DNA of 48,730 nt, filler included, from Catajapyx aquilonaris (taxonomy: Eukaryota): assembly GCA_000934665.2 (NCBI GenBank). It is 2 parts of 2 records of this genome, joined end to end, with 100 filler letters (N's around TTAATTAATTAA, not from the genome) between each part and the next. Parts side by side here need not be neighbours in the genome. Positions count along the whole stretch, not along the records: positions 24,414 to 48,730 come from KZ539375.1; 1 more part is not named here. One strand, 5' to 3'. A program made the translations under genes and the position numbers. The notes below the pieces were generated by a model. The model made no database searches. It had not been told where the DNA came from and saw only the letters and a program-made list of their open reading frames with translations. Shown in pieces: positions 641-48,730 of this stretch (positions within the stretch are counted from its first letter, which is position 1; the number at the start of each line of letters is the position of its first letter).

Positions 641-1346
641 TATGTGGATTTATTCCCCCTCTTTATATCACGCTTTTTTTTCTAAGCCTACATTAGGTCT
701 AATTTTTCAAGCCGCGATGATCGTACGATTCGTACCTGTTCCGGACCGTACAAAAACAACAACAACAACAAAAAAAACATCAACGGCCCAACATGTTAGA
801 ACGGGTCCCCTTTCGAGGAGAAAAATTCATTATAGGAACGTATATTTTGGTGGCTGATAGGGTCACTTGAACCGGGATGGCAGCAGATCAAACGAAAATG
901 TTATTTTTTCCCTGAAAAGTTGGAAAATGTGCATTATTTATACAGTTTTGCCTTGATCCCCCCCGCGGGGGAGTGTTGCCCGGGTCGTGGCCATTGCCTC
1001 ATCCGCCCCTCCCGCCCCCTGTCCCCAATTCACCCCAAATAAACACCTTTTCACATACACCATACAACGCAACGCACCTCCCACTCCCGCCCGCCTCCCA
1101 AGACCCCGACCGTGCGGCCATGGGACCCTGGGGCCGTGGGGCCGCGACCGTGACCCGTGATCACAGTTCTGTGAATTCCGGAATAACGCCAAATAAACAA
1201 CCACGGTAACCTAGCAGCGCCCAAGATAGCAAACACATAAACACATAAGAAATAAACAGTGAGGACAATCTTTTTGAACGTGATAGTACATTATTGTCTT
1301 GTATGGACCAGCACCATTGATTTATTTCAGATCAGGGATTAGAGTA

Positions 1347-1688
1347 ATGCAGAAGGACTATTACGAGATCCTGGGCGTTGTATCCAACGCTGTAGATGCA
1401 GACATCAGAAAAGCTTATCTCAAGCTGGCCCTCATGTGGCATCCAGACAAGAACAAGGATCCTGGGGCTGAAGAGAAGTTCAAAGAGATTTACGGAGCCT
1501 ACCAGGTGCTGATCGACAAGGAGAAACGCAGGGCATACGAGGAGGAAAGGGCTCGTGCATCTGATCAGAAGAGGCGTGGACAAAGAAGTCCGACATGTTA
1601 TGCACCAGGATGGCCAAACAGTCAGCACGAATTTGTGTCGTGGCTAAGGGGTGATCCTCCATTTCATGGACCTCGAAAGTCTCGCTAA
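1347..1688 (+). CDS. Small DnaJ/Hsp40 J-domain protein, 113 aa
   Basis: [11 protein letters not shown]...[18 protein letters not shown]...[15 protein letters not shown] with intact HPD motif. Acceptor-like TTTATTTCAG ends at 1330; AATAAA near 1923. Confidence 0.85.
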
Positions 1689-9937: not shown

Positions 9938-11193
9938 CAGTTGAATCTGGATATAACAGCCTTGGCTATAACAGATTTTCAGCTATAACATACTCCAAAA
10001 GGCCAGTCAATGCAAACTTCCATATATGGCTCGTGTATTCTGTTGTAATCCCTGCCCAAATGTAGGAAGGCTGAGAAGTGAGGAGCGAAGGAAAAGTATG
10101 TCTTCTCTGTGGTGTCTGTAGCAATAGCGATCTTCTGCGCCATATCAAAAGTAAGCGTTGTCTCCTCCAGCAACTTTGGCCGTATATTCTCATCTGCAAT
10201 ACCCACCACAGGCTGATCTCTCAGGTGTTTGATAATGTCAGTGAAGTTGCAGGGTTCCGTTAGTCGCGTAGGTCATTAATGTAATTGAGGTGCTCAGAGG
10301 AAGAACAGCATATCCCAACAGGAGTTCATTTGTAGATAAATGACTTTTTGTGTTGTAAGACAGTAGGTTTTTCCATTACAGACCAATTTTACAAGTGGAA
10401 TATGTGAGCTTTGACATTATCCCAATTCATTTGGTACTTCAGCACATGAAAGGTAGATGGCAGGGGAGTACAACAGCACTACAATCTCAATATTGGGGTT
10501 GGTTGGGATATGCCATTCTTCCTCTGAGAGCCTCAATTACTAACAGATTCTCCTAGCTGCTGTCGGCATAGGTGAAACTTGCATCGCTGCACTATCTCTG
10601 ATGGTGTGGTGTTGAAGTGGTCTCCCACTGCAGCTTTGACATCATTGTAGGACATGTCGGACAGCTTCTTCGGAGCTACCACTGCACATATGGTGTGGAG
10701 TGTAGAAGGTCCCACGGCACTCAGCAGAACAGCCAGCCTCTCTCCCTCTCTGATCTTGTTAGCAGTAAAAAAGAACTCTTCTCGCTCCAGGTACTCGTCC
10801 CATGTCTCACTAAATTCGTTTGATGGGTCGAACACTCCCAATTGTCCGTGATTTGGCATGATGAGCTCTTGTAGTACATTGTACTAGGTTAGTACTAAGA
10901 TTCACACTGGGAGATCTTCGCAGCACAGCGTAGCCCTGTTGTAGGTATTACGTTATCTGCCTCATCACCAATTGTTGTAATCCCTGCCGAACGCAGGAGG
11001 GCTGGGAAGTGAGGAAGCAGGAAGGAAAAGTAAGTCTGTTCTGTAGTTCTGCTAGTCATAGAGTCCTTTATTTATCTTCGTCACTATCCAACCTCGCAAT
11101 ACATTACAATGCATCCATCACTACGCAACATATTTGGCTATAACAGACTGATTTCCGCGGTCCCTTGAAGTCTGTTATATCCTGATTCAACTG
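9938..11193. mobile_element. pogo/Tigger-like MITE carrying a nested LTR element
   Basis: TA|CAGTTGAATCTGGATATAACAG ... CTGTTATATCCTGATTCAACTG|TA. Confidence 0.75.
10041..11108 (-). mobile_element. Deleted Ty3/gypsy LTR retrotransposon (short LTRs, gag remnant)
   Basis: 136-bp TG..CA LTR at 10973-11108 followed by PBS-like TGGTGATGAGG. Partial second LTR at 10041-10101. gag-like ORF 10533-10859 (WDEYLER.EFFFTANKI...LLSAVG) with a continuation near 10110-10230. Confidence 0.85.
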
Positions 11194-11968: not shown

Positions 11969-13700
11969 GGTGACTGGTTTAACATTAGTGTTGGGGTTAA
12001 GCAGGGTTGTGTCATGTCTCCCTGGTTATTTAACTTGTACTTAGATGCATGTGACGGGGGAGGCGGAGTGGTGCTGCGGTAACGTATGCGCCCACGGATG
12101 TTAAGGTCCCGGGTTCGATCCCAACCCGGGGACACCCTCTTCATCTCGTGCAGAGTTCAGGGTCACCTCTGGCTTCGTCTCGGGTGGTATTTCCTCAGAC
12201 TAAACCACCCGGGGGAGTTCACTAAAAATGGCCACATAAAGACATTGCACTGCACCTTGCACATCCCCTCCTGTCATCCTGCCCGTGGGCCCGGGCGCTT
12301 CAATAATTAGGTTCCAAATATGTACATCGTACAAATAAAGGTCCGTGCTACATGCCGAGAAGGCCAAGCACTACCCGGATATTATTATTATTATTATTAT
12401 ATATACTTAGATGCATGTGTAAGGGAAGCTATGGTTGAAGGTGTAGGAGTGCAGTTTGGTGAGGAGTTAGTTAGTCACTTGCTGTATGCAGATGATTCTG
12501 CCCTTCTGGCGGAGAGAGAGGCTGATTTACAGTTGATCCTATGCAAGTTAGATAATGTTTGTGAAAAGAGGGGTATGAGGATTAATGTAGATAAGACTAA
12601 GGTATTGGTATTTGAGAGAGGACAGCAGGTTTATCCTTTTATGTTGCAGGTACAAGGAAAGCTGGTTGAGCAGGTCAACCAGTTTGTATACCTGGGTAGT
12701 GTCCTTGAGAGTAATGGTAGAATGGATGGGGAGATAGACAGGAGAGTTAGTTCTGGGTTGAAAGTGATAGGTGCCACAAGTACTTTTCTAGAAATAAGGA
12801 CTTATCTTCTGCCTGTAGGTTGTCTGTCTCTTCTCATGTTATTGTTCCTTCACTTATGTATGGTAGTGAAGCGTGGGTTTGGTCAGATAGGCATAAGAGT
12901 AGGGTGTTGGTTACAGAGATGCGTTATCTCCGTGCTGTTTGTGGGGTTACCAAGTTGGATAGGATTAGGAATGAGGAGATTTTGCAGAGGTGTGATGTTA
13001 AGGAGACTGTTAAAGATAAGGTGTATAGGTCTACTCTAAGGTGGTTTGGCCATGTGGAGAGGATGAAGGAGGAGGAGATTGTGAAGAAGGTTTATTTGGG
13101 TAGAGTACTTGGTAAGAGGGGCAAGTGTAGGCCTAGGAAGACAAAGACATGGTTGGACCAGGTGGGTCAGTGTCTTAAGGGTGTTGCTAGTGTTAATCCC
13201 AGACGTTCATGTGTCAATAGGACCATGGACGTGGATGAGGCTAAGGTTGTTTGTTTGGATAGGTGTAAATGGCCTAGGTTAATTAATGGGTAGAATATTC
13301 ACGGGTTTGTGAGGAATGGCAGTGTCCATTGAATTCTTCTGAATGGCTAGAATGTTTGCAGGTTGGTGGGAGGAGTCGGCGTCTGGAGGTTCATACTCTG
13401 ACTCTGGGTGCTGTGCAGAACTACAAGTTTGGCAAATATCTTTTGCACAGTAATGCATAGGTTGACACCGGGAGTCATGCTTGCAAGGGTATTTGCCTCT
13501 CTCTCTGTCCTGCACAGCACTTGGAGTTCGGGTGTGGATTTCCGTATGCTGGTTCTTCTTGCTGGCCTGTGGGTGTTCTGGTCGTTTGGAGGAGAATATT
13601 CTAGTCACTTGGAGGAATTTAACAGTTGCTGATTCCTCCTCCAGGGGGGGAGTGGGGGATACTTGATTTCTCAAGTAGGCCTACTGCGCTGCATAGTGTA
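11969..13700 (+). mobile_element. 5'-truncated RTE-like LINE (reverse-transcriptase pseudogene plus probable 3' UTR)
   Basis: GVKQGCVMSPWLFNLYLD, LLYADD, INVDKTKV, FVYLGS, LMYGSEAW and LRWFGHVERM motifs. Frameshifted and interrupted by a SINE. 3' boundary approximate. Confidence 0.9.
12054..12403 (+). mobile_element. tRNA-derived SINE, family B, inserted in the LINE
   Basis: 16-bp TSD TACTTAGATGCATGTG (12038-12053 and 12404-12419), B-box GGTTCGATCCC, (TAT)n tail. Confidence 0.92.
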
Positions 13701-15175: not shown

Positions 15176-16639
15176 ATGGTTATCAAGACATTTGTGGACA
15201 AGAACCTGCAAGCCAAGCTTCGGGCTTTTACATATGACCAATTTAAGGACTTAGTGATTTATTGCAACGGAGGACAGCTAAGAGCTCATCGCATGTTACT
15301 GGCCACCAGTTCTGAACGGCTGCATAGTTATTTGCAAATAGTGGAAAACACGCTAGATTCCAGCATTATGCTCCCAGACTTCACTGTGGCATCAGTTGAG
15401 CTGCTTCTTCGATTCATTTATGTTGGAAAAATCGATGCAACTGCCGATGAGCTTCATGAATTGAGGCAACTCTGCCACCTACTGGCTGTTCCTTTTGGTG
15501 AAAGTGAATTTCATAAGGTATCCCCTCCTCAACCCAAGCCCAGCCATGACAATGCTGTAAGATCAAAACGCAGGAAGGAATCAGGCGCAGCACCACTTGC
15601 AGATTATTCTGAATGCCATGGAGCACCAAGCCGCAAGACAAGAAATAGAGGTGACATTAAATTGAAGCAGTCAAGAAAGGAACTGTACTCAGATTCTTCA
15701 GAAGGAGAGGGGGTTGGATCTGAGCTCTTGACAGCACCAGAAGTCAGAGTGCAGGAGCAAGTGTCAACACACAAGGACAACAGTGAAATTGAGAGCTGTG
15801 AATCTTCCCAAAGTAGCATTGATGGCAATGAAATGTGTAAGGCTTCTCATGGTGGGCTCAATGAGGACAATGTGATTATCACCGATGATGATGCATTAAG
15901 ATCTGAGACCGAAGTACAGGAACAAGTCACTGGCATCAATAATGACAACAGAGGGGAAGCTAACCTACACAGCAGCCTAGGAAAGGGAAAGAAGAGGAAG
16001 AAGGGATGCATGCTTCCAGGACAGGACCTCGACAAGGACAACTGCTGTACCAGTGAACCGGAATCTCCTCAAATGCCGATTCAGCCAAAGAGGATGCAGA
16101 ATCGGAGAAGACTTCCAATATCAGATTCTTCAGAGGAAGAGGGAGGGGGCCGGGAACAAGTCACTGGCATCAATAATGACAACAGAGGGGAAGCTGACCT
16201 ACGCAGAAGCCTAGGAAAGAGAAAGAAGAGGAAGAAGGGATGCATGCTTCCAGGACAGGACCTCGACAAGGACAACTGCTGTACCAGTGAACCGGAATCT
16301 CCTCAAATGCCGATTCAGCCAAAGAGGATGCAGAATCGGAGAAGACTTCCAATATCAGATTCTTCAGAGGAAGAAGGAGGGGGCCGGGAACAAGTCACTG
16401 CCATCAATAATGACAACAGAGGGGAAGCTAACCGGCGCAGAAGCCTAGGAAAGGGAAAGAAGAGGAAGAAGGGATGCATGCTTCCAGGACAGGACCTCGA
16501 CAAGGACAACTGCTGTACCAGTGAACCGGAATCTCCTCAAATGCCGATTCAGCCAAAGAGGAAGCAGAATCGGAGAAGGCTCCCAATATCAGATTCTTCA
16601 GAGGAAGAGGTAGGGGGCCAGTCGGCATCACAGATTTGA
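15176..16639 (+). CDS. BTB/POZ-domain protein with three 78-aa C-terminal repeats, 487 aa
   Basis: FKDLVIYCNGGQLRAHRMLLATSS...IMLPDFTVASVELLLRFIYVGKI is a typical insect BTB domain. Uninterrupted ORF; splice acceptor directly before the ATG. Confidence 0.85.
   Translation: MVIKTFVDKNLQAKLRAFTYDQFKDLVIYCNGGQLRAHRMLLATSSERLHSYLQIVENTLDSSIMLPDFTVASVELLLRFIYVGKIDATADELHELRQLCHLLAVPFGESEFHKVSPPQPKPSHDNAVRSKRRKESGAAPLADYSECHGAPSRKTRNRGDIKLKQSRKELYSDSSEGEGVGSELLTAPEVRVQEQVSTHKDNSEIESCESSQSSIDGNEMCKASHGGLNEDNVIITDDDALRSETEVQEQVTGINNDNRGEANLHSSLGKGKKRKKGCMLPGQDLDKDNCCTSEPESPQMPIQPKRMQNRRRLPISDSSEEEGGGREQVTGINNDNRGEADLRRSLGKRKKRKKGCMLPGQDLDKDNCCTSEPESPQMPIQPKRMQNRRRLPISDSSEEEGGGREQVTAINNDNRGEANRRRSLGKGKKRKKGCMLPGQDLDKDNCCTSEPESPQMPIQPKRKQNRRRLPISDSSEEEVGGQSASQI
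15919..16620 (+). repeat. Three 234-bp coding tandem repeats
   Basis: Units start at 15919, 16153 and 16387 (GGAACAAGTCACTG...) and are near-identical. Confidence 0.95.
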
Positions 16640-16682: not shown

Positions 16683-17775
16683 CATATGTCGTAGCCCCAT
16701 AGCGCAATTGGGCACTTCATGAAATGTCTATTGAAATTGGACACATGCTGTAGTGCAATCTCCTGTGAAGAATTACAGCATGTGCCCAGAAATATTGGAC
16801 TGTTTGCGAAGTGTCATGAACGGGTTGGACTGATTCCGTAATTCAGAATCTACCCAGTGTACATGAGCAGCTGAGCAAAACCAGAAGGTGTGGAGGGCAT
16901 CGGGAGATGCAGAGTGCAGGCCATATCTGCCCATGACCTGGAGGGAATGTGAGGAGGGAATGTCTAGAAGTCCAGGAGTTGGTCCTGATTCTTGAGCCAA
17001 AGGGTAGTCCAGGAGACTGTACGGAAAGGTTGTCATCCGTACTGTGATTGCATCAGGAGTCTGCATATGACTGAGGTGACCAAATTGGTCATGAGAATGC
17101 TGAAGAGAGAAGATTTGCAGCAGTGCACTTTGGTTACTTCCTCGGACATGTCATTGCCCCACCAAATGACACTTATGATCAACCAATCAGACAAGTACTT
17201 GCTTTCACTCGAGTCAGTGGCAGATCTAGACGTCGTTGTTGGGGGCGGGGGGGGGGGGNNNNNNNNNNNNNNNNNNNNNNNNNNNNNNNNNNNNNNNNNN
17301 NNNNNNNNNNNNNNNGACATGGCCATTTTTCTGTTTCTTGCTTCAGCTTGGGGGTGATCACCCCGATCACCCCCCCCCCCCCCATAGATCCGCCACTGAC
17401 TCGAGTACGGATGACAACCTTTCTGTACAGTCACCTGGACTACCCTTTGGCTCAAGAGTCCAGACCAATTATTATTCAACTCCTGGACTTCCAGACATTC
17501 CCTCCTCACATTTCGTCCAGGTCATGTGGGCAGGTATGGCCTGCACTCTGCATCTCCCGATGTCCTCCACCCCTTCTGGTTTTGCTCAGCTGCTCATGTA
17601 TGCTGGATAGATTCTGATTTACGGAATCAGTCAAACCGGTTGCTGACAAATCACGAACAGTCCAATATTTCTGGGCACATGCTGTAATTCTTCACAGGAG
17701 ATTGCACTACAGCATGTGTCCAATTTCAGTAGACATTTCATGAAGTGCCCAATTTCTCTATGTGGCGACGACATA
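16683..17775. repeat. Long inverted repeat, arms about 360 bp (16683-17043 and about 17404-17775)
   Basis: For example GGACACATGCTGTAGTGCAATCTCCTGTGAAGAATTACAGCATGTGCCCAGAAATATTGGACTGTT is mirrored at about 17657-17721. Confidence 0.92.
17215..17398. mobile_element. hAT-type MITE (contains an assembly gap)
   Basis: TIR CAGTGGCAGATCTA/TAGATCCGCCACTG; 8-bp TSD ACTCGAGT at 17207-17214 and 17399-17406. Confidence 0.88.
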
Positions 17776-35073: not shown

Positions 35074-35786
35074 TACCACATGTGAAAAGGATATGCACTC
35101 TGCATGGTTATGCAGGTAAATTCCAGGTGTAATTTGAAATGTTTAACTTGTGTCAAATTACACCTGGAATTTACGTGGGGATTTGGTGGGTTCTTGTTGG
35201 GAAGGCTGGTGCAAATTGACTATTTCTGCGCCTCAGAGACACAAGAAGTTCTGTCAAATTAAATGGCATGATGCACTACTTTCATTGCAGATGGATGGAC
35301 AAGGGAGGGCAAGGGGTAGGGCCAGAGGCCGCGCACAGTCTCAGACCATGGGGGAAGGAGAGACCAGGCCAGGCTGTGAACTGGTGGCATCAGGATCCCA
35401 GACCCGCCCCCCAGTTGGAGGCGGAAGGGCCGCCTGCTCCAGGAAGGTCCCAGGCACCACCAGACCTGGAGGAGGGAGCTGCCCAGCCAGAGAGGGTCGT
35501 GACCGCTGGTGCCGCTAGCTTGCAGAAGGAGTTGTCCGCAATGGCTATCCAAGAGGGTGAGCCACTTCATTTGCTATCATTGCTTTTGTAGGCTCCTTCA
35601 AGTGCTCCAAGTACAAGGTGGAAGGGACTGGGGTTGCATTAATCTCCCACATGTGGCATGTTGATCAGGTGGCATGATTTTGCTTTTCCAGAAGGTGGCA
35701 ATGATGTGTTGGCGGGCAGGGGAGGCGCCAGGGAGCAACTGGATCGCCAAATGACGCAGGTATGCACATGTCCAGACCACGTCACC
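35074..35786 (+). pseudogene. Truncated, frameshifted tandem duplicate of the piwi 5' region
   Basis: Co-linear with 36218-36944 including intron 1. Lacks 20 nt (TGACTGCAGGGGAGGGGCCG) in exon 1 and ends early in exon 2. Confidence 0.9.
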
Positions 35787-36174
35787 CTGTAGATGATCTT
35801 CCCCCCGGCATTTTACATTTAAAAGGACCACCACAAATTAAAATAATTATTTTTGGAGCAAAGTTGTTATTCATTAATATCACTCCATCAATTTTTGAAC
35901 AAAAAAGAAGAAAACGGCCCAAAGACCTGCCAAAAACTCCGCCGTCAACAGGTTAAAGTTAATTGCACTGTTTGAAAAAAAATTGGAACACCCTGTAGAT
36001 GAATTTTTTCAGCATTTTACATTCAAAAGGACCACCATGAGTTAAAATGATAAATATTGGAGCATATTGTTTTTCATTAATATCACTCCTACTACATTTT
36101 GGTCAATAAAAGAAAAAAAGGCCCCAAAAAAAGGCCCAAAAAAGGCCCAAAAAACCCCGCCGTCAAAGGGTTAA
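35783..36174. mobile_element. Two diverged units of about 180 bp of a DNA-transposon end fragment
   Basis: Units start CACCCTGTAGATGA (35783 and about 35989) and end CGCCGTCAA..GGTTAA, a piggyBac-like TTAA terminus. Confidence 0.55.
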
Positions 36175-36428
36175 CCACAGAAGAGAACAGTACATTAACC
36201 CTTTCGAATTTAGCGTGTACCACATGTGAAAAGGATATGCACTCTGCATGGTTATGCAGGTAAATTCCAGGTGTAATTTGAAATGTTTAACTTGTGTCAA
36301 ATTTACCTGGGGATTTGGAGTGTTCTTGTTGGGAAGGCTGGTGCAAATTGACTATTTCTACCCCTCAGAGACACAAGAACAAGAAGTTCTGTCAAATTAA
36401 ATGGCATGATGTACTACTTTCATTGCAG

Positions 36429-39400
36429 ATGGGTGGACAAGGGAGGGCAAGGGGTAGGGCCAGAGGCCGCACACAGTCTCAGACCATGGGGGAAGGAGAG
36501 ACCAGGCCAGGCCGTGAACTGGTGGCATCAGGATCCCAGACCCGCCCCCCAGTTGGAGGCGGAAGGGCCGTGACTGCAGGGGAGGGGCCGCCTGCTCCAG
36601 GAAGGTCCCAGGCACCACCAGACCTGGAGGAGGGAGCTGCCCAGCCAGAGAGGGTCGTGACCGCTGGTGCCGCTAGCTTGCAGAAGGAGTTGTTCGCAAT
36701 GGCTATCCAAGAGGGTGAGCCACTTCATTTGCTATCATTGCTTTTGTAGGCTCCTTCAAGTGCTCCAAGTACAAGGTGGAAGGGATTGGGGTTGCATTAA
36801 TCTCCCACATGTGGCATGTTGATCAGGTGGCATGATTTTGCTTTTCCAGAAGGTGGCAATGACGTGTTGGTGGGCAGGGGAGGCGCCAAGGAGAATCTGG
36901 ATCGCCGCATGCAACAGGTTTGCACACATCCAGACCACTTCACCAGCAAGCAGGGAACCTCAGGCAGGGTCGTCAAGCTGATGGCCAATTACTTTGAAGT
37001 GGTCAAGCGGCCGGAGTGGACCTTGGTTCAATATCGGGTGGACTTCACCCCAGAAGAGGACCGCACATCTGTCCGGAAGAAGATGCTGCGTTTGTGCAAG
37101 GAGGAGTTGGGTGGTGCCTATATATTTGATGGAACTGTCCTGTACATGAATCGCCGCCTCCCAGGAGATCGCCTGAAAACCTGCTGCGAACGTGGGACCA
37201 ACCAGGAGAAGATACATGTGATGATCCGCATGGTGGGCGAACTGAAGCCATCCGACCACATGTTCCTGCAAGTTTTCAACATCCTGCTGAGGGAGGCCAT
37301 GGAGCACTTGAAGCTGGAGTTGATAAATCACCACTTCTACGACTGCCATGCAAGCATCAAGATCCCCGAATTTAACCTGGAGCTATGGCCTGGGTACATC
37401 ACCTCCATTCGCCAGCACGAACACCGTCTGCTTCTCTGCACTGAGATACACCACAAGGTCCTGAGGCAGGACACTGTATTGAAGCAGCTGTACGTGTTCC
37501 ATGGACATGACAAGCTTAACTATCAGAGGATGGCAGCGGAGGCCTTGCTCGGATCGATTGTCATGACCCGGTATAATGCCAAGACCTACAGGATTGATGA
37601 CATTGACTGGGAGAAGTCCCCAGAGGAAGTGTTTCCACGGCGTGATGGAGGGGACATCTCTTACGTGGAGTATTACAAGCAGCGCTACGGAGAGGTTGTG
37701 AAGGACATGCGCCAGCCTCTGCTGGTGTCGCGACCCCGCAGGAAGGACGTCCACCGGGGCCAGGTGGAGTCGCTGTACCTGGTTCCAGAGCTGTGCTTCA
37801 TGACAGGACTGGACCAGTCCATGCGCGAGAACTTCCAGCTGATGAAGGCCATAGGGCAGCACACCCACCAAGCCCCTGACAAGAAGGTGCAGGTCCTTCA
37901 GCGATTTATGAATCGCCTCAACAATGAGCCCAAGTGCATGGAGGAGCTCGGAGGCTTCGACTTGAAGTTTGGCAACAAGCTGGTGGAGCTGGACGGCCGG
38001 CTGCTGGAGCCTGAGCGCATAGTCCTGGGCAGAGCCAAACAAATTAGTGCGGGGATGCAGGCCGACTGGACCAGAGATCTTCGCAACAGCGCCATGCTGA
38101 GGGTAAGGGAACGTATTGCAACTTTTGCCATTGTCAGGAGGTCCCCCACAATACACAATACATGCTGATGGGGGGAGGCGAAGTGGCGCAACGGTAACGT
38201 TCGCGCCCACGGATGTTAAGGTCCCGGGTTCGATCCCGGCCCGGGGACACCCCCTTCATCTCGTGCAGAGTAAAGTGTCGTCTCTGACTTCGTCTCGGGT
38301 GGAATATCCACAGACTAATCCACCCAGGGGAGCTCACAAAACGACCACATGCGGACAAGGCACTGCACTTGCACATCCCCTCCTGTCATCCCTTCCTGCC
38401 CGTGGGCCCGGGCGCTATACAAATAGGAACCAGTTGTAGTTGATGTTTAATAATAAAGGTCCGGAAAAACCCCGATAGGGGTACGCCTACACCCAATTAT
38501 TATTATTATTATTATCAATACATGCTGATGTCAGTTGGGAAGTTGCACTTCCAAAAGTGAAATGTCATGTTAGGTTTTATGAAGCTAATGCAATGTAATG
38601 GACAGTATTGCAGGTTCAAGTGGGTTGTGTGTCCCAAAAATGCATGCATGCAATACAGAGTTCGTCATGAATGGTGGTGGTGTTCAGCATTAGGCATGGA
38701 AAAGGCATGGAAATTCCCTTCTCCTGCAGTACTGATCAATTTTCCATCCCTAGGTCGTTCCCCTGGCCAACTGGGCTGTCATTGTACCACAGTATAATGC
38801 AGGGGACCTGCCGGGATTCATCCAGACGCTACGCCAGGCTGGGGCAGGCATGTCCTTCTCAATGGTAGAGCCACTCGTTGTGTCCATAAAGGAGATTCGC
38901 CCCCAAGAGTACATGAAGGCCATTGACGAGTGTTATAGTAACGTGTCGCCACAGATACTCATGATAATCCTTGCCTCCAACCGCAAGGACATGTATGGGG
39001 CTATAAAGAAGCACTGCTATGTGGAGAGGGGCATGCCGTCTCAGGTGGTGGTAGCCCGCAACCTGAAGTCAAAAAACCTAATCTCCATCACCACCAAGAT
39101 AGCCATCCAGATCAACTGCAAGCTCGGAGGGGAGCCCTGGTCCGCCGACATCCCACTGAAGAATTGCATGATGGTCGGCTTCAACATCTATGGCAACACA
39201 AAGCAGAAGAGGACAACAGTGGGGGCCCTGGTCGCCTCCATGAATCCAGTGTACACAAGGTACTATACCACAGTAGCCATGCATCACCATCAGGAGAGGC
39301 TATCACACTTCATCGCCTCCAATATGGTGCAGGCCTTGCACAAGTACAAGGAGACGAATGGCAAGCTGCCGTCCCACATCCTGTTATATCGAGGAGGTGT

Positions 39401-40067
39401 TGGTGAGGGCGAGGTGAGCCAGTGGTTTTTCATAATAATTATGGGAGGGAACTTCCTAGTACTTTCCTCACTGCAAGTCTGACCTTGAAGTAGACAATGT
39501 CGTCCATGATTGTTGTGTGGCATGATAATTTTAATTGGAAGTTGTTCCTGGTAACATCAGATGGACAGTTTTTAAGTTCGGCTTGTATTTAAAAGCGATG
39601 TCCTTTGTCTGCAGGTTGGTTATGTGAAGGATCACGAGTTGACCCAGATCCAGGAATCTCTGGCCAAGATCTACAGCCCAAACGCCTACAAATTTGCATT
39701 TATCATCGTGAACAAGGGGCTGAATACGTCAATCATGACAGCCCAGCAGGGGAACCCCCACCCTGGAACGATTGTGGACGACATCATCACCCTTCCAGAC
39801 AGATACGACTTCTATCTGATCTCCCAGACGGTGTGGCAGGGCACTGTGTCACCAACAAGCTATTCCGTCATATTTGACACTCTCCACCTGGAGCCGGACA
39901 AGGTGCAGCGACTCACCTACAAGATGTGCCATTTGTACTTCAACCGGAGCGGATCCATCCGTGTTCCTGCCCCGTGCCAGTATGCCCACAAGCTGGCCTA
40001 CCTAGTTGGGGAGTACTTACACAGTGAGGTCCACGAGAACCTGAGGGACACACTGTACTTCCTCTAG
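36429..40067 (+). CDS. piwi: Piwi/Aubergine-clade Argonaute, 883 aa, predicted catalytically inactive; exons 36429-36714, 36850-38102, 38754-39413, 39615-40067
   Basis: GRARGRARGR N-terminus, LELWPGYITSI, PAZ (YNAKTYRIDDIDW, YLVPELC), MID (YGAIKK, PSQVV, KIAIQINCKLGG) and PIWI (YDFYLISQ, PAPCQYAHKLA, C-terminal LYFL). Three GT-AG introns are phase-compatible (1,0,0), total 2652 nt. Exact orthology within the Piwi/Aub clade not determined. Confidence 0.93.
38171..38515 (+). mobile_element. SINE family B in piwi intron 2
   Basis: 15-bp TSD CAATACATGCTGATG (38156-38170 and 38516-38530); homologous to 12054-12403. Confidence 0.92.
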
Positions 40068-40226
40068 TTGTGTGCTTTGTTTTGTTATTTTTTTAAAGGA
40101 CCCCCATCCATCTTGCCTGCTTTTTTAAACTTTTTTTGTAAGTTAATCCCATTTTCTACATAGTATGAACTTGTTTAGTTACGCTCATGTGATGCGTTTT
40201 GTAGGGGAGGTCACCAACCCGTTTAC

Positions 40227-40560
40227 CTATTGCGACCCCCTTGCTGTGTCATTTGTGCGTTTTAAAGTCTTGTCAATTGCTAACCATAGTCCACCTGATG
40301 CATGACCAAAATGGGACCTCCTCTCTGCTAAGGAATGCCACGCTAAATAGTTCTTATCACTATCTGCCGGTTTAATCTCCTCTTCAAGCCAGGTTTCTGT
40401 GAAGCCCACTATTTTAGCTGTTCTTAATTGTGATTGTGTTTTTTGCCATGCACTGGTTATATTCATCCCTGCTATGTTCCAAAAGGACACTTGAAGGGGG
40501 TAATAATTAGTTTGGGTATGCTGTAACTTGGAACCTCTGATTTTTTGCCAAGATTGTGGT
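40227..40560 (-). mobile_element. LINE AP-endonuclease fragment
   Basis: VSFWNIAGM...IVGFTETWL...SGGL motifs of the EEP endonuclease N-terminus. Confidence 0.7.
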
Positions 40561-47816: not shown

Positions 47817-48382
47817 TCATGAATGGCTTGCAAGGATGTTAAAAAAGTGGTACACTTCTTCTTTGTCCCGCACTGCAACCTGAGTTTTACATGTTGTGCA
47901 CCTGACAGGATGGTATACATCCGTATCTGATGCTGACTTGTCTTCATCTGGTTTTTTACTTCGCTGCTTCTTTTTTGGCTCACTGGCATACTCAAGGCGT
48001 TCTTCCTCATTTGTGGTGCAATTGAACACAAACATAGCACGATACTGTGTGCTGTACTTTACATGTCGCTGACAGTCCATACAAAGGAGTGTGAAACATG
48101 CAGGACAGTTCAACACTGCATCACTGTTAGGAAGCTTGGCTGGACAGAGTCCTGTTTTTCCAACCATCTTGGATCTCTTGCGGTCCATCCACTTCTGATC
48201 TTTGTCATCACTGGTTGGGTCATACAGTAACTCATCATTGGTGAGGACACGACGGTCTGGCTTTGATTCATCATCCGAGTCAGAATCAAAGTAGACTTTG
48301 TCATACATCTTTTCCTGAGGTGGTGCCTGACCGGATGGACCTGCTTGCGGTTGCGATTCGCCCAGTCCCTTCAGTGCAACCC
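47817..48382 (-). CDS. EAPP: E2F-associated phosphoprotein, terminal coding exon; upstream exons not identified
   Basis: YFDSDSDDE, NDELLYDP..DDKDQKW, SDAVLNCPACFTLLCMDCQRH..Y.TQYRAMFV.NC and YHPV.C..C.T.VAV.DKEEVYHFFNILASH. Acceptor TCTTTATTCGTAG at 48383. Confidence 0.9.
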
Positions 48383-48730
48383 CTACGAATAAAGATTGTT
48401 CAAGTTGTAATAGTTTAGTCCCAATATTTGTACTGACCTTGTGATGAATGTTGTTCATGAATTCTCTCAAGACGGCCAATTGGTAGACTATTGGCTGGCA
48501 CATAACAATCATCACATGATGTCAAGATTTTAATAAAACGCCTTTTAACATGTACCAACCAGATCAGTGGCTTATATCAAAACAGATACTAAGGTAGATG
48601 CTCCAGTGATGGACCCGTTAAGGAAAAAAATTTACGTTGGACACTCTATGCAGGGGAATTAGCGTAAGACATCCTCGAAAAAAATATCGTTAGAATCGTC
48701 GAAACTTGCTCTTTCATCCAGTGCACATTT

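Follow-up and report, generated by a model that had tools for sequence, protein, structure and literature searches.

Slicing by the PIWI clade of Argonaute proteins depends on an Asp-Glu-Asp-His (DEDH) tetrad, and members of the clade that act without it have been described. Drosophila Piwi carries the tetrad DVDK, does not slice, and loads PIWI-interacting RNAs (piRNAs) without slicing; it regains the activity once DEDH and two network residues are restored, and its authors proposed that it gave up slicing to become an RNA-guided binding platform (PMC7015924). Aedes Piwi6 silences a retroelement independently of its tetrad (PMC13535231), and Api-Piwi8 of the pea aphid, a lineage-specific paralogue with a DDR triad, was judged likely non-slicing (PMC3230593). 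Here, we analyse a PIWI-clade Argonaute gene of Catajapyx aquilonaris (GenBank assembly GCA_000934665.2), which lies on the plus strand at positions 36429-40067 of a stretch of 48,730 nucleotides (hereafter called the “window”; two parts of two records joined by 100 filler letters, with positions 24,414-48,730 from KZ539375.1). Three of the four tetrad residues are replaced in the encoded protein, while the rest of the protein, the guide pocket included, is as conserved as in the Piwis that cut.

Replacement of the catalytic centre

The spliced protein was aligned by MAFFT with 115 relatives of at least 650 amino acids, out of 172 proteins. The tetrad positions were assigned from a phmmer alignment to the silkworm (Bombyx mori) protein Siwi (5GUH), which is gapless around the catalytic sites, by counting along the chain, and the Siwi numbering follows PMC7015924. 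Siwi D670, E708, D740 and H874 align with N657, R695, G727 and H858, respectively. The tetrad is DEDH in 77 of the relatives, fully aligned but non-DEDH in 22, and gapped at one or more positions in 16. Where the DEDH-bearing relatives read D-E-D-H at each position (77/77), the Catajapyx protein reads N-R-G-H. The features of the centre are as follows.

39183-39185, plus strand: N657 (AAC), first catalytic Asp position, Siwi D670; Asp in 77/77 DEDH relatives
39192-39194, plus strand: G660 (GGC), position of human Ago2 (hAgo2) His600 and Siwi H673; His in 73/77 DEDH relatives
39297-39299, plus strand: R695 (AGG), glutamate-finger position, Siwi E708; E694 is one residue earlier
39393-39395, plus strand: G727 (GGA), second catalytic Asp position, Siwi D740; the Arg before it, which corresponds to hAgo2 R668, is retained
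39714-39731, plus strand: KGLNTS in place of the KRxNTR of the relatives (R768G and R772S, by alignment)
39987-39989, plus strand: H858 (CAC), fourth tetrad residue, Siwi H874; retained

The first-pass annotation of this locus, made from the sequence alone, had read the two Asp codons as AAC and GGA, the usual KRINTR as KGLNTS, and the tetrad as reduced to its His, and these readings are exact. It had also raised a possible, alignment-dependent Glu-to-Arg change at 39297. The codon is AGG, and the alignments to Siwi and to EfPiwi agree on this change with the MAFFT alignment of the 115 relatives. In addition, the NW motif reads NR in the Catajapyx protein (W844R).

The network that holds the glutamate finger is also altered. 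In hAgo2, the plugged-in Glu637 is kept in place by His600 and Arg668, and these two residues are stabilised by Ser610 and Glu683 (PMC7015924). In the Catajapyx protein, the equivalents of Arg668 and Glu683 are kept as R726 and E741, and those of His600 and Ser610 are G660 and T668. A slicer-competent protein has the DEDH tetrad and an intact hydrogen-bond network of the Glu finger, and the Catajapyx protein has neither. In Siwi, one tetrad mutation abolishes slicing (PMC13535231), and the H874K and E708V mutants are almost inactive and reduced in activity, respectively (PMC7015924). Since both metal-binding Asp residues, the Glu finger and the His600 equivalent are replaced, slicing is predicted to be lost, and the protein should be incapable of it by the established requirements of the reaction.

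The four changed codons of the centre are at least seven nucleotide changes away from any Asp, Glu or His codon, and the loss of slicing is therefore not very recent. Adenosine-to-inosine editing was considered as a rescue and rejected by reasoning, as it could turn AAC (39183) into an Asp codon, but never GGA.

Retention of the guide pocket

How might the protein hold its guide? The pocket for the 5′-phosphate lies in the MID domain and is complete.

38994-39122, plus strand: MID 5′-phosphate pocket, Y594, K598, Q610, Q632 and K636; all kept

The corresponding motifs YGAIKK, SQV and QINCK start at 38994, 39039 and 39108, respectively. In Drosophila Piwi, the 5′-phosphate is held by Tyr551, Lys555, Gln567, Lys593, the PIWI-specific metal-binding Gln589 and the C-terminal carboxylate (PMC7015924). 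The identical counterparts of these residues in the Catajapyx protein are Y594, K598, Q610, K636, Q632 and L883. The PIWI-specific metal-binding Gln, which is Lys in the AGOs, is thus present as Q632, and the 5′-phosphate pocket is intact. The piRNAs bound by PIWI-clade Argonautes are 24-31 nucleotides long and 2′-O-methylated at the 3′ end. The retained pocket residues suggest that the Catajapyx protein binds a guide (piRNA).

Conservation and phylogeny

In order to compare the catalytic centre with the rest of the protein, we defined the conserved columns as those at least 90% conserved in the 77 DEDH relatives (n = 93). The Catajapyx protein differs at 10 of the 93. None of the changes is in N-L1 (0/12), PAZ (0/17) or MID (0/10), two are in L2 (2/4; R to K and W to F), and eight are in PIWI (8/50). 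The catalytic-network columns are changed in 4 of 7 cases, as compared to 6 among the remaining 86 (Fisher test, one-sided, p = 0.002; subject to the ascertainment that the gene was chosen for these sites). The concentration of substitutions at the active site, as proposed in the first-pass annotation, therefore stands with this qualification. Outside the tetrad, 82 of 89 conserved columns are kept (0.92; the DEDH set has a median of 0.97 and a minimum of 0.90).

When compared with six insect Siwi/Aub proteins, the Catajapyx protein has an identity of 0.44 in N-L1, 0.45 in PAZ, 0.35 in L2, 0.42 in MID and 0.51 in PIWI. In the same comparison, the DEDH-bearing Piwi2 of Eriocheir reaches 0.37, 0.43, 0.29, 0.31 and 0.52, so that the Catajapyx protein equals or exceeds it in four of the five domains, and its values are comparable to those of DEDH-bearing crustacean and springtail Piwis. 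The overall identity to nine named arthropod reference Piwis is 0.40-0.44, while the insect orders share 0.45-0.55 with each other.

The tree comprises 43 rows, namely the query, 17 of the 19 word-index matches (without P0017 and P0023), and 25 representatives of 800-1100 amino acids among P0024-P0074, and was built by a quick method with the LG+G4 model and without an AGO outgroup. The Catajapyx protein falls within the arthropod Aub/Siwi/Piwi side, apart from Ago3/PIWIL2, in agreement with its first-pass assignment to the Piwi clade. It groups weakly (Shimodaira-Hasegawa-like approximate likelihood ratio 88, not starred) with a clade containing proteins of the springtails Orchesella and Allacma. 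Its end branch is 0.61, as compared to the median of 0.52. The branch length and the identities resemble those of canonical Piwis, and thus indicate no global acceleration of the protein.

Among solved structures, Siwi (5GUH) is the best match for both exon 3 (4.9e-55) and exon 4 (3.4e-53), followed by the sponge, fly, mouse and human PIWIs. The top 12 matches of exon 3 and the top 11 of exon 4 are all PIWI proteins, whereas AGO2 follows at about 1e-7 and 4e-20. A word-index search with exon 3 (19 matches among 864 candidates) found no relative above 47% identity, and an exhaustive search of representatives with exon 2 found none above 45% among the best 150 of 3689 matches at E ≤ 0.001 (31-45% in those listed). 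A closer relative might sit behind a 50% cluster representative, although the word-index search would probably have caught one.

Gene structure

The gene consists of four exons joined by GT...AG introns throughout. The joined coding sequence of 2652 nucleotides encodes 883 amino acids ending in LYFL and is followed by TAG, confirming the clean splicing described in the first-pass annotation.

36429-36714, plus strand: exon 1; 95 codons and one base, disordered N-terminus with the RG/RA run; no Pfam family
36441-36470, plus strand: Arg-Gly/Arg-Ala run GRARGRARGR, residues 5-14
36850-38102, plus strand: exon 2; N domain, L1, PAZ and L2; PAZ 4.8e-34
38754-39413, plus strand: exon 3; MID and the first half of PIWI, bearing tetrad positions 1-3
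39615-40067, plus strand: exon 4; second half of PIWI through the C-terminal LYFL and TAG

In addition to PAZ, Pfam detects the Piwi domain in halves, at 3.2e-35 in exon 3 and 7.7e-40 in exon 4, while ArgoN, Piwi_N and ArgoL1 are matches below the cut-off. The gene thereby shows the N-L1-PAZ-L2-MID-PIWI architecture of a PIWI-clade Argonaute, and the RG/RA run, PAZ and MID phosphate residues reported in the first-pass annotation are all in place. Arg-Gly/Arg-Ala runs of this type are methylated in PIWI proteins for Tudor docking. The initiating ATG immediately follows an AG acceptor, and an untranslated upstream exon is therefore likely. The GC content of the PIWI exons is about 0.51, as compared to about 0.39-0.47 in the rest of the window.

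The 5′ region of the gene is partially duplicated in tandem, and the copies are spaced by about 1140-1158 nucleotides.

35074-35722, plus strand: partial tandem duplicate, about 98% identical to 36218-36880 (upstream region, exon 1, intron 1 and the first ~30 nucleotides of exon 2)

The upstream duplicate of exon 1 begins MDGQ... and lacks 20 nucleotides, which shifts its frame. One read contig of run X3 (depth 23) has the 20 nucleotides, and an in-frame allele or copy therefore exists. High-copy repeat DNA lies between the tandem copies, at 35724-36266 (word depth 3,500-13,000), with a 53-nucleotide direct repeat at 35808 and 36012, and may have mediated the duplication.

Intron 2 contains a tRNA-like repeat of the short interspersed nuclear element type at 38172-38400, with a summed DNA word depth of up to about 231,000 in the bin, as compared to about 25 in the unique flanks; ARAGORN called no tRNA gene in this repeat. 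The repeat is followed, at about 38497-38515, by an (ATT)n run.

Reads and diverged copies

Exact DNA contigs, with no other letters, cover 38486-39050, 39344-39689 and 39668-40307 in three runs of one sample. The read differences considered here are 40 of 140, and the sample is probably the assembly's own, and hence not independent of it. The exact contigs confirm the GGA codon at 39393 and the KGLNTS motif, as well as the His and stop codons. In contrast, the stretch 39051-39343, which holds the N657, G660 and R695 codons, is outside every listed read piece; the bin 39163-39343 has read depth. The codon readings of the first-pass annotation are thus supported by reads at the second Asp, the KGLNTS motif and the His.

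In 36438-36668 and 37058-37817, over parts of exons 1 and 2, runs X1-X3 yield contigs that are 6-9% different from the window (21/231, 29/381 and 22/269 other letters). One of these diverged contigs carries G to T at 37104, which turns E181 into a stop, and another has a one-nucleotide deletion at 37570. The organism therefore has further Piwi copies (very diverged alleles being the less likely alternative), and at least some of these are broken, while the copy in the window is whole.

How informative is an open frame of this length? In simulations of an unconstrained frame, no stop arose in 42%, 17%, 3.4% and 0.05% of cases at 1%, 2%, 4% and 8% divergence, respectively. These simulations count only stops, and frameshifting insertions and deletions would lower the percentages further. 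The integrity of the frame, together with the normal conservation of the protein, suggests that the gene is still under selection.

Proposed role and alternative explanations

We consider it probable that the product of the gene, a complete PIWI protein of the Aub/Siwi type, binds guides, does not slice and is still maintained by selection. In this model, the MID pocket (Y594, K598, Q610, Q632, K636 and the C-terminal Leu) and the PAZ domain would grip a piRNA at its 5′ and 3′ ends, and the N-terminal RG/RA run would dock Tudor proteins. The RNase H-like centre would lack its metal-binding carboxylates, with Asp changed to Asn and to Gly, the Glu finger to Arg and the finger-holding His to Gly. 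The RG run, the Aub/Siwi-type affinity and the lack of a classical nuclear signal by eye hint, as weak evidence, at a Tudor-docked cytoplasmic protein. It is also conceivable, though doubtful, that outside flies the piRNA machinery of the cytoplasm (nuage) has in this protein a dedicated member that does not slice, and which would hold transcripts without consuming them, either as a tether guided by piRNAs or as a ping-pong brake. If so, a non-slicer in the nuage would have arrived independently, in another compartment, at the “binding platform” of Drosophila Piwi.

Several observations weigh against a functional, guide-binding protein. The five listed sequencing runs include none of RNA, a blank rather than evidence, and X5 fell on repeats alone, with no coverage of the gene. 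The 31 differences to the diverged copies listed in exons 1 and 2 comprise 12 that are synonymous and 19 that are not, a synonymous share not significantly above the 28% expected under neutrality (p = 0.14). The conserved-column retention of 0.92 is within the DEDH range, but near its low end. The tandem 5′ duplication with its frameshifted exon 1 copy leaves the real transcription start of the gene ambiguous, and the family includes broken copies, so that a recently silenced yet intact copy is possible. Moreover, R768G and R772S are in a motif that contacts the guide backbone in AGO2, and guide handling may be altered. Several of these points would fit a recently inactivated or never-expressed duplicate in a young, decaying, multi-copy Piwi family, whose frame is open only for lack of time. 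We regard this explanation as unlikely, while giving it real weight: the stop at 37104 and the deletion at 37570 in contigs 6-9% different from the window, the unremarkable 12:19 ratio and the recent 5′ duplication all speak for it. However, a decayed duplicate would have had to keep 883 intact codons and canonical introns, where an unconstrained frame escapes stops in only 3.4% of cases at 4% neutral divergence even with insertions and deletions uncounted. It would also have to show no change in the conserved columns of N-L1, PAZ and MID, with the branch length and domain identities of canonical Piwis, and the multiple hits in the active-site codons indicate a long time since the loss of slicing. 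The first-pass proposal of a functional non-cleaving paralogue (a putative transcriptional silencer, scaffold or piRNA sink) rather than a decaying gene is supported in part, by the loss of the slicer centre, the retained pocket, the normal conservation and the intact frame, and gains no significant support from the synonymous ratio.

The other explanations concern the centre and the guide. A protein kept as a guide-independent scaffold, for contacts such as Tudor docking through the retained RG run and with no use of a small RNA, could account for R768G, R772S and W844R, which are in or beside motifs near the guide path. We find this improbable, as all five residues of the pocket are retained together with the C-terminal Leu, and the conserved columns of PAZ and MID are unchanged, which would be unexpected without guide binding. 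It is far more improbable that the protein is still a nuclease, with a working or altered centre rebuilt in a shifted register from E694 as the finger, H858 and other carboxylates. E694 is one residue ahead of the finger position, in a flexible loop, and H858, R726 and E741 are kept, so that a register shift of the finger is conceivable, yet it would not restore the aspartates. Both metal-binding Asp residues, invariant in the DEDH relatives, are now Asn and Gly, no substitute carboxylates are evident in the aligned motifs, and single tetrad mutations already abolish or cripple slicing by Siwi (PMC7015924, PMC13535231). Finally, an error of sequencing or assembly could be suspected where the N657, G660 and R695 codons (39183-39299) are outside the listed read pieces. 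We give this hardly any credence: GGA, the KGLNTS motif and the His and stop codons lie within exact contigs from three runs, read depth is present in the bin 39163-39343, and at least seven in-frame nucleotide changes across four codons are unlike an error. Our preferred reading of the gene thus remains a conserved Piwi protein that would bind piRNAs and not cut.

Other features of the window

The remaining features of the window, which concern neither the Piwi gene nor its duplicate, are as follows.

1287-1688, plus strand: DnaJ domain exon, 1.3e-25
10533-10883, minus strand: weak PNMA/Gag-like match, 7.3e-04, below the cut-off
About 11.1-11.5 kb and 32.7 kb: long (TAT)n-type microsatellites, with poly-Tyr/poly-Leu frames
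12311-13039, plus strand: reverse-transcriptase fragment, RVT_1 2.9e-07
15176-16639, plus strand: open frame of 487 amino acids; N-terminal BTB/POZ (7.7e-12), then three near-identical repeats of about 70 amino acids rich in Ser, Glu and Lys
About 17260-17320: run of N, an assembly gap, X in all frames
47817-48521, minus strand: one open frame of 234 amino acids; Eapp_C (E2F-associated phosphoprotein C-terminal domain), 1.3e-46

Vertebrate EAPPs are the best public relatives of the last frame, with an identity of only about 40-56%.

Comparison with known Piwi proteins

How does the Catajapyx protein compare with the Piwis that have been described? Like Siwi (5GUH), to which its MID-PIWI region aligns without gaps, it has the same domain order, the same 5′-phosphate pocket residues, the PIWI-specific Gln and the C-terminal LYFL. 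In contrast, Siwi cuts RNA with D670, E708, D740 and H874 (PMC7015924), whereas the Catajapyx protein has N, R, G and H at these positions, Gly in place of H673, and KGLNTS in place of KRINTR.

Degenerate tetrads are widespread among the sampled relatives. Seven of the 22 non-DEDH relatives lack at least one Asp (DQRF, DDSY, DAIH, EGIR, DDNK, DTSH and NQDH). All of these sequences are predictions, and the gene models behind some of them may be poor. Named examples of non-DEDH relatives are a tephritid Piwi (DVDK), an aphid “Siwi” (NQDH) and a springtail protein (DAIH). The springtail Piwis of Orchesella cincta (P0032, D-D-D-H) and Allacma fusca (P0059, D-A-I-H) belong to the nearest clade of the tree and likewise have non-canonical tetrads. 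However, they are about 40% identical to the Catajapyx protein, and the substitutions differ site by site, so that the losses appear to be independent.

The aphid expansion, with Api-Piwi8 and the “Siwi” of Melanaphis sacchari (P0171, N-Q-D-H), offers a similar case of Piwi paralogues with a degenerate catalytic site. P0171 shares with the Catajapyx protein the Asn at the first Asp, in the context ...NIY..., and a degenerate KRxNTR motif. In contrast, the aphid proteins keep the second Asp, and P0171 is 36% identical to the Catajapyx protein and has a lower conserved-column retention (0.86, as compared to 0.92).

Drosophila Piwi (6KR6) also departs from the canonical tetrad and no longer has the His at the His600 position, which is K617 in the fly protein (PMC7015924) and G660 here, and the first Arg of its KRxNTR motif is replaced as well, according to the alignment. 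While the fly protein keeps both Asp residues and loses the Glu and the His, the Catajapyx protein loses both Asp residues and the Glu, and keeps the His. Moreover, Drosophila Piwi has an N-terminal nuclear localisation signal (PMC7015924), whereas residues 1-110 of the Catajapyx protein show by eye no Lys-rich classical signal and only the Arg-rich RG/RA run. Orthology to the dipteran Piwi was considered and rejected, as the DVDK tephritid Piwi (P0034) is in a separate starred clade.

A non-slicing Piwi is an already known kind of protein, common among the sampled relatives, and not a new class of system. The Catajapyx gene would instead be a clean natural case of how duplicated PIWI genes repeatedly lose slicing, with a loss more complete than in Drosophila Piwi, since both Asp residues are gone. 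If it is expressed, it would provide a non-dipteran test of PIWI function without cutting.

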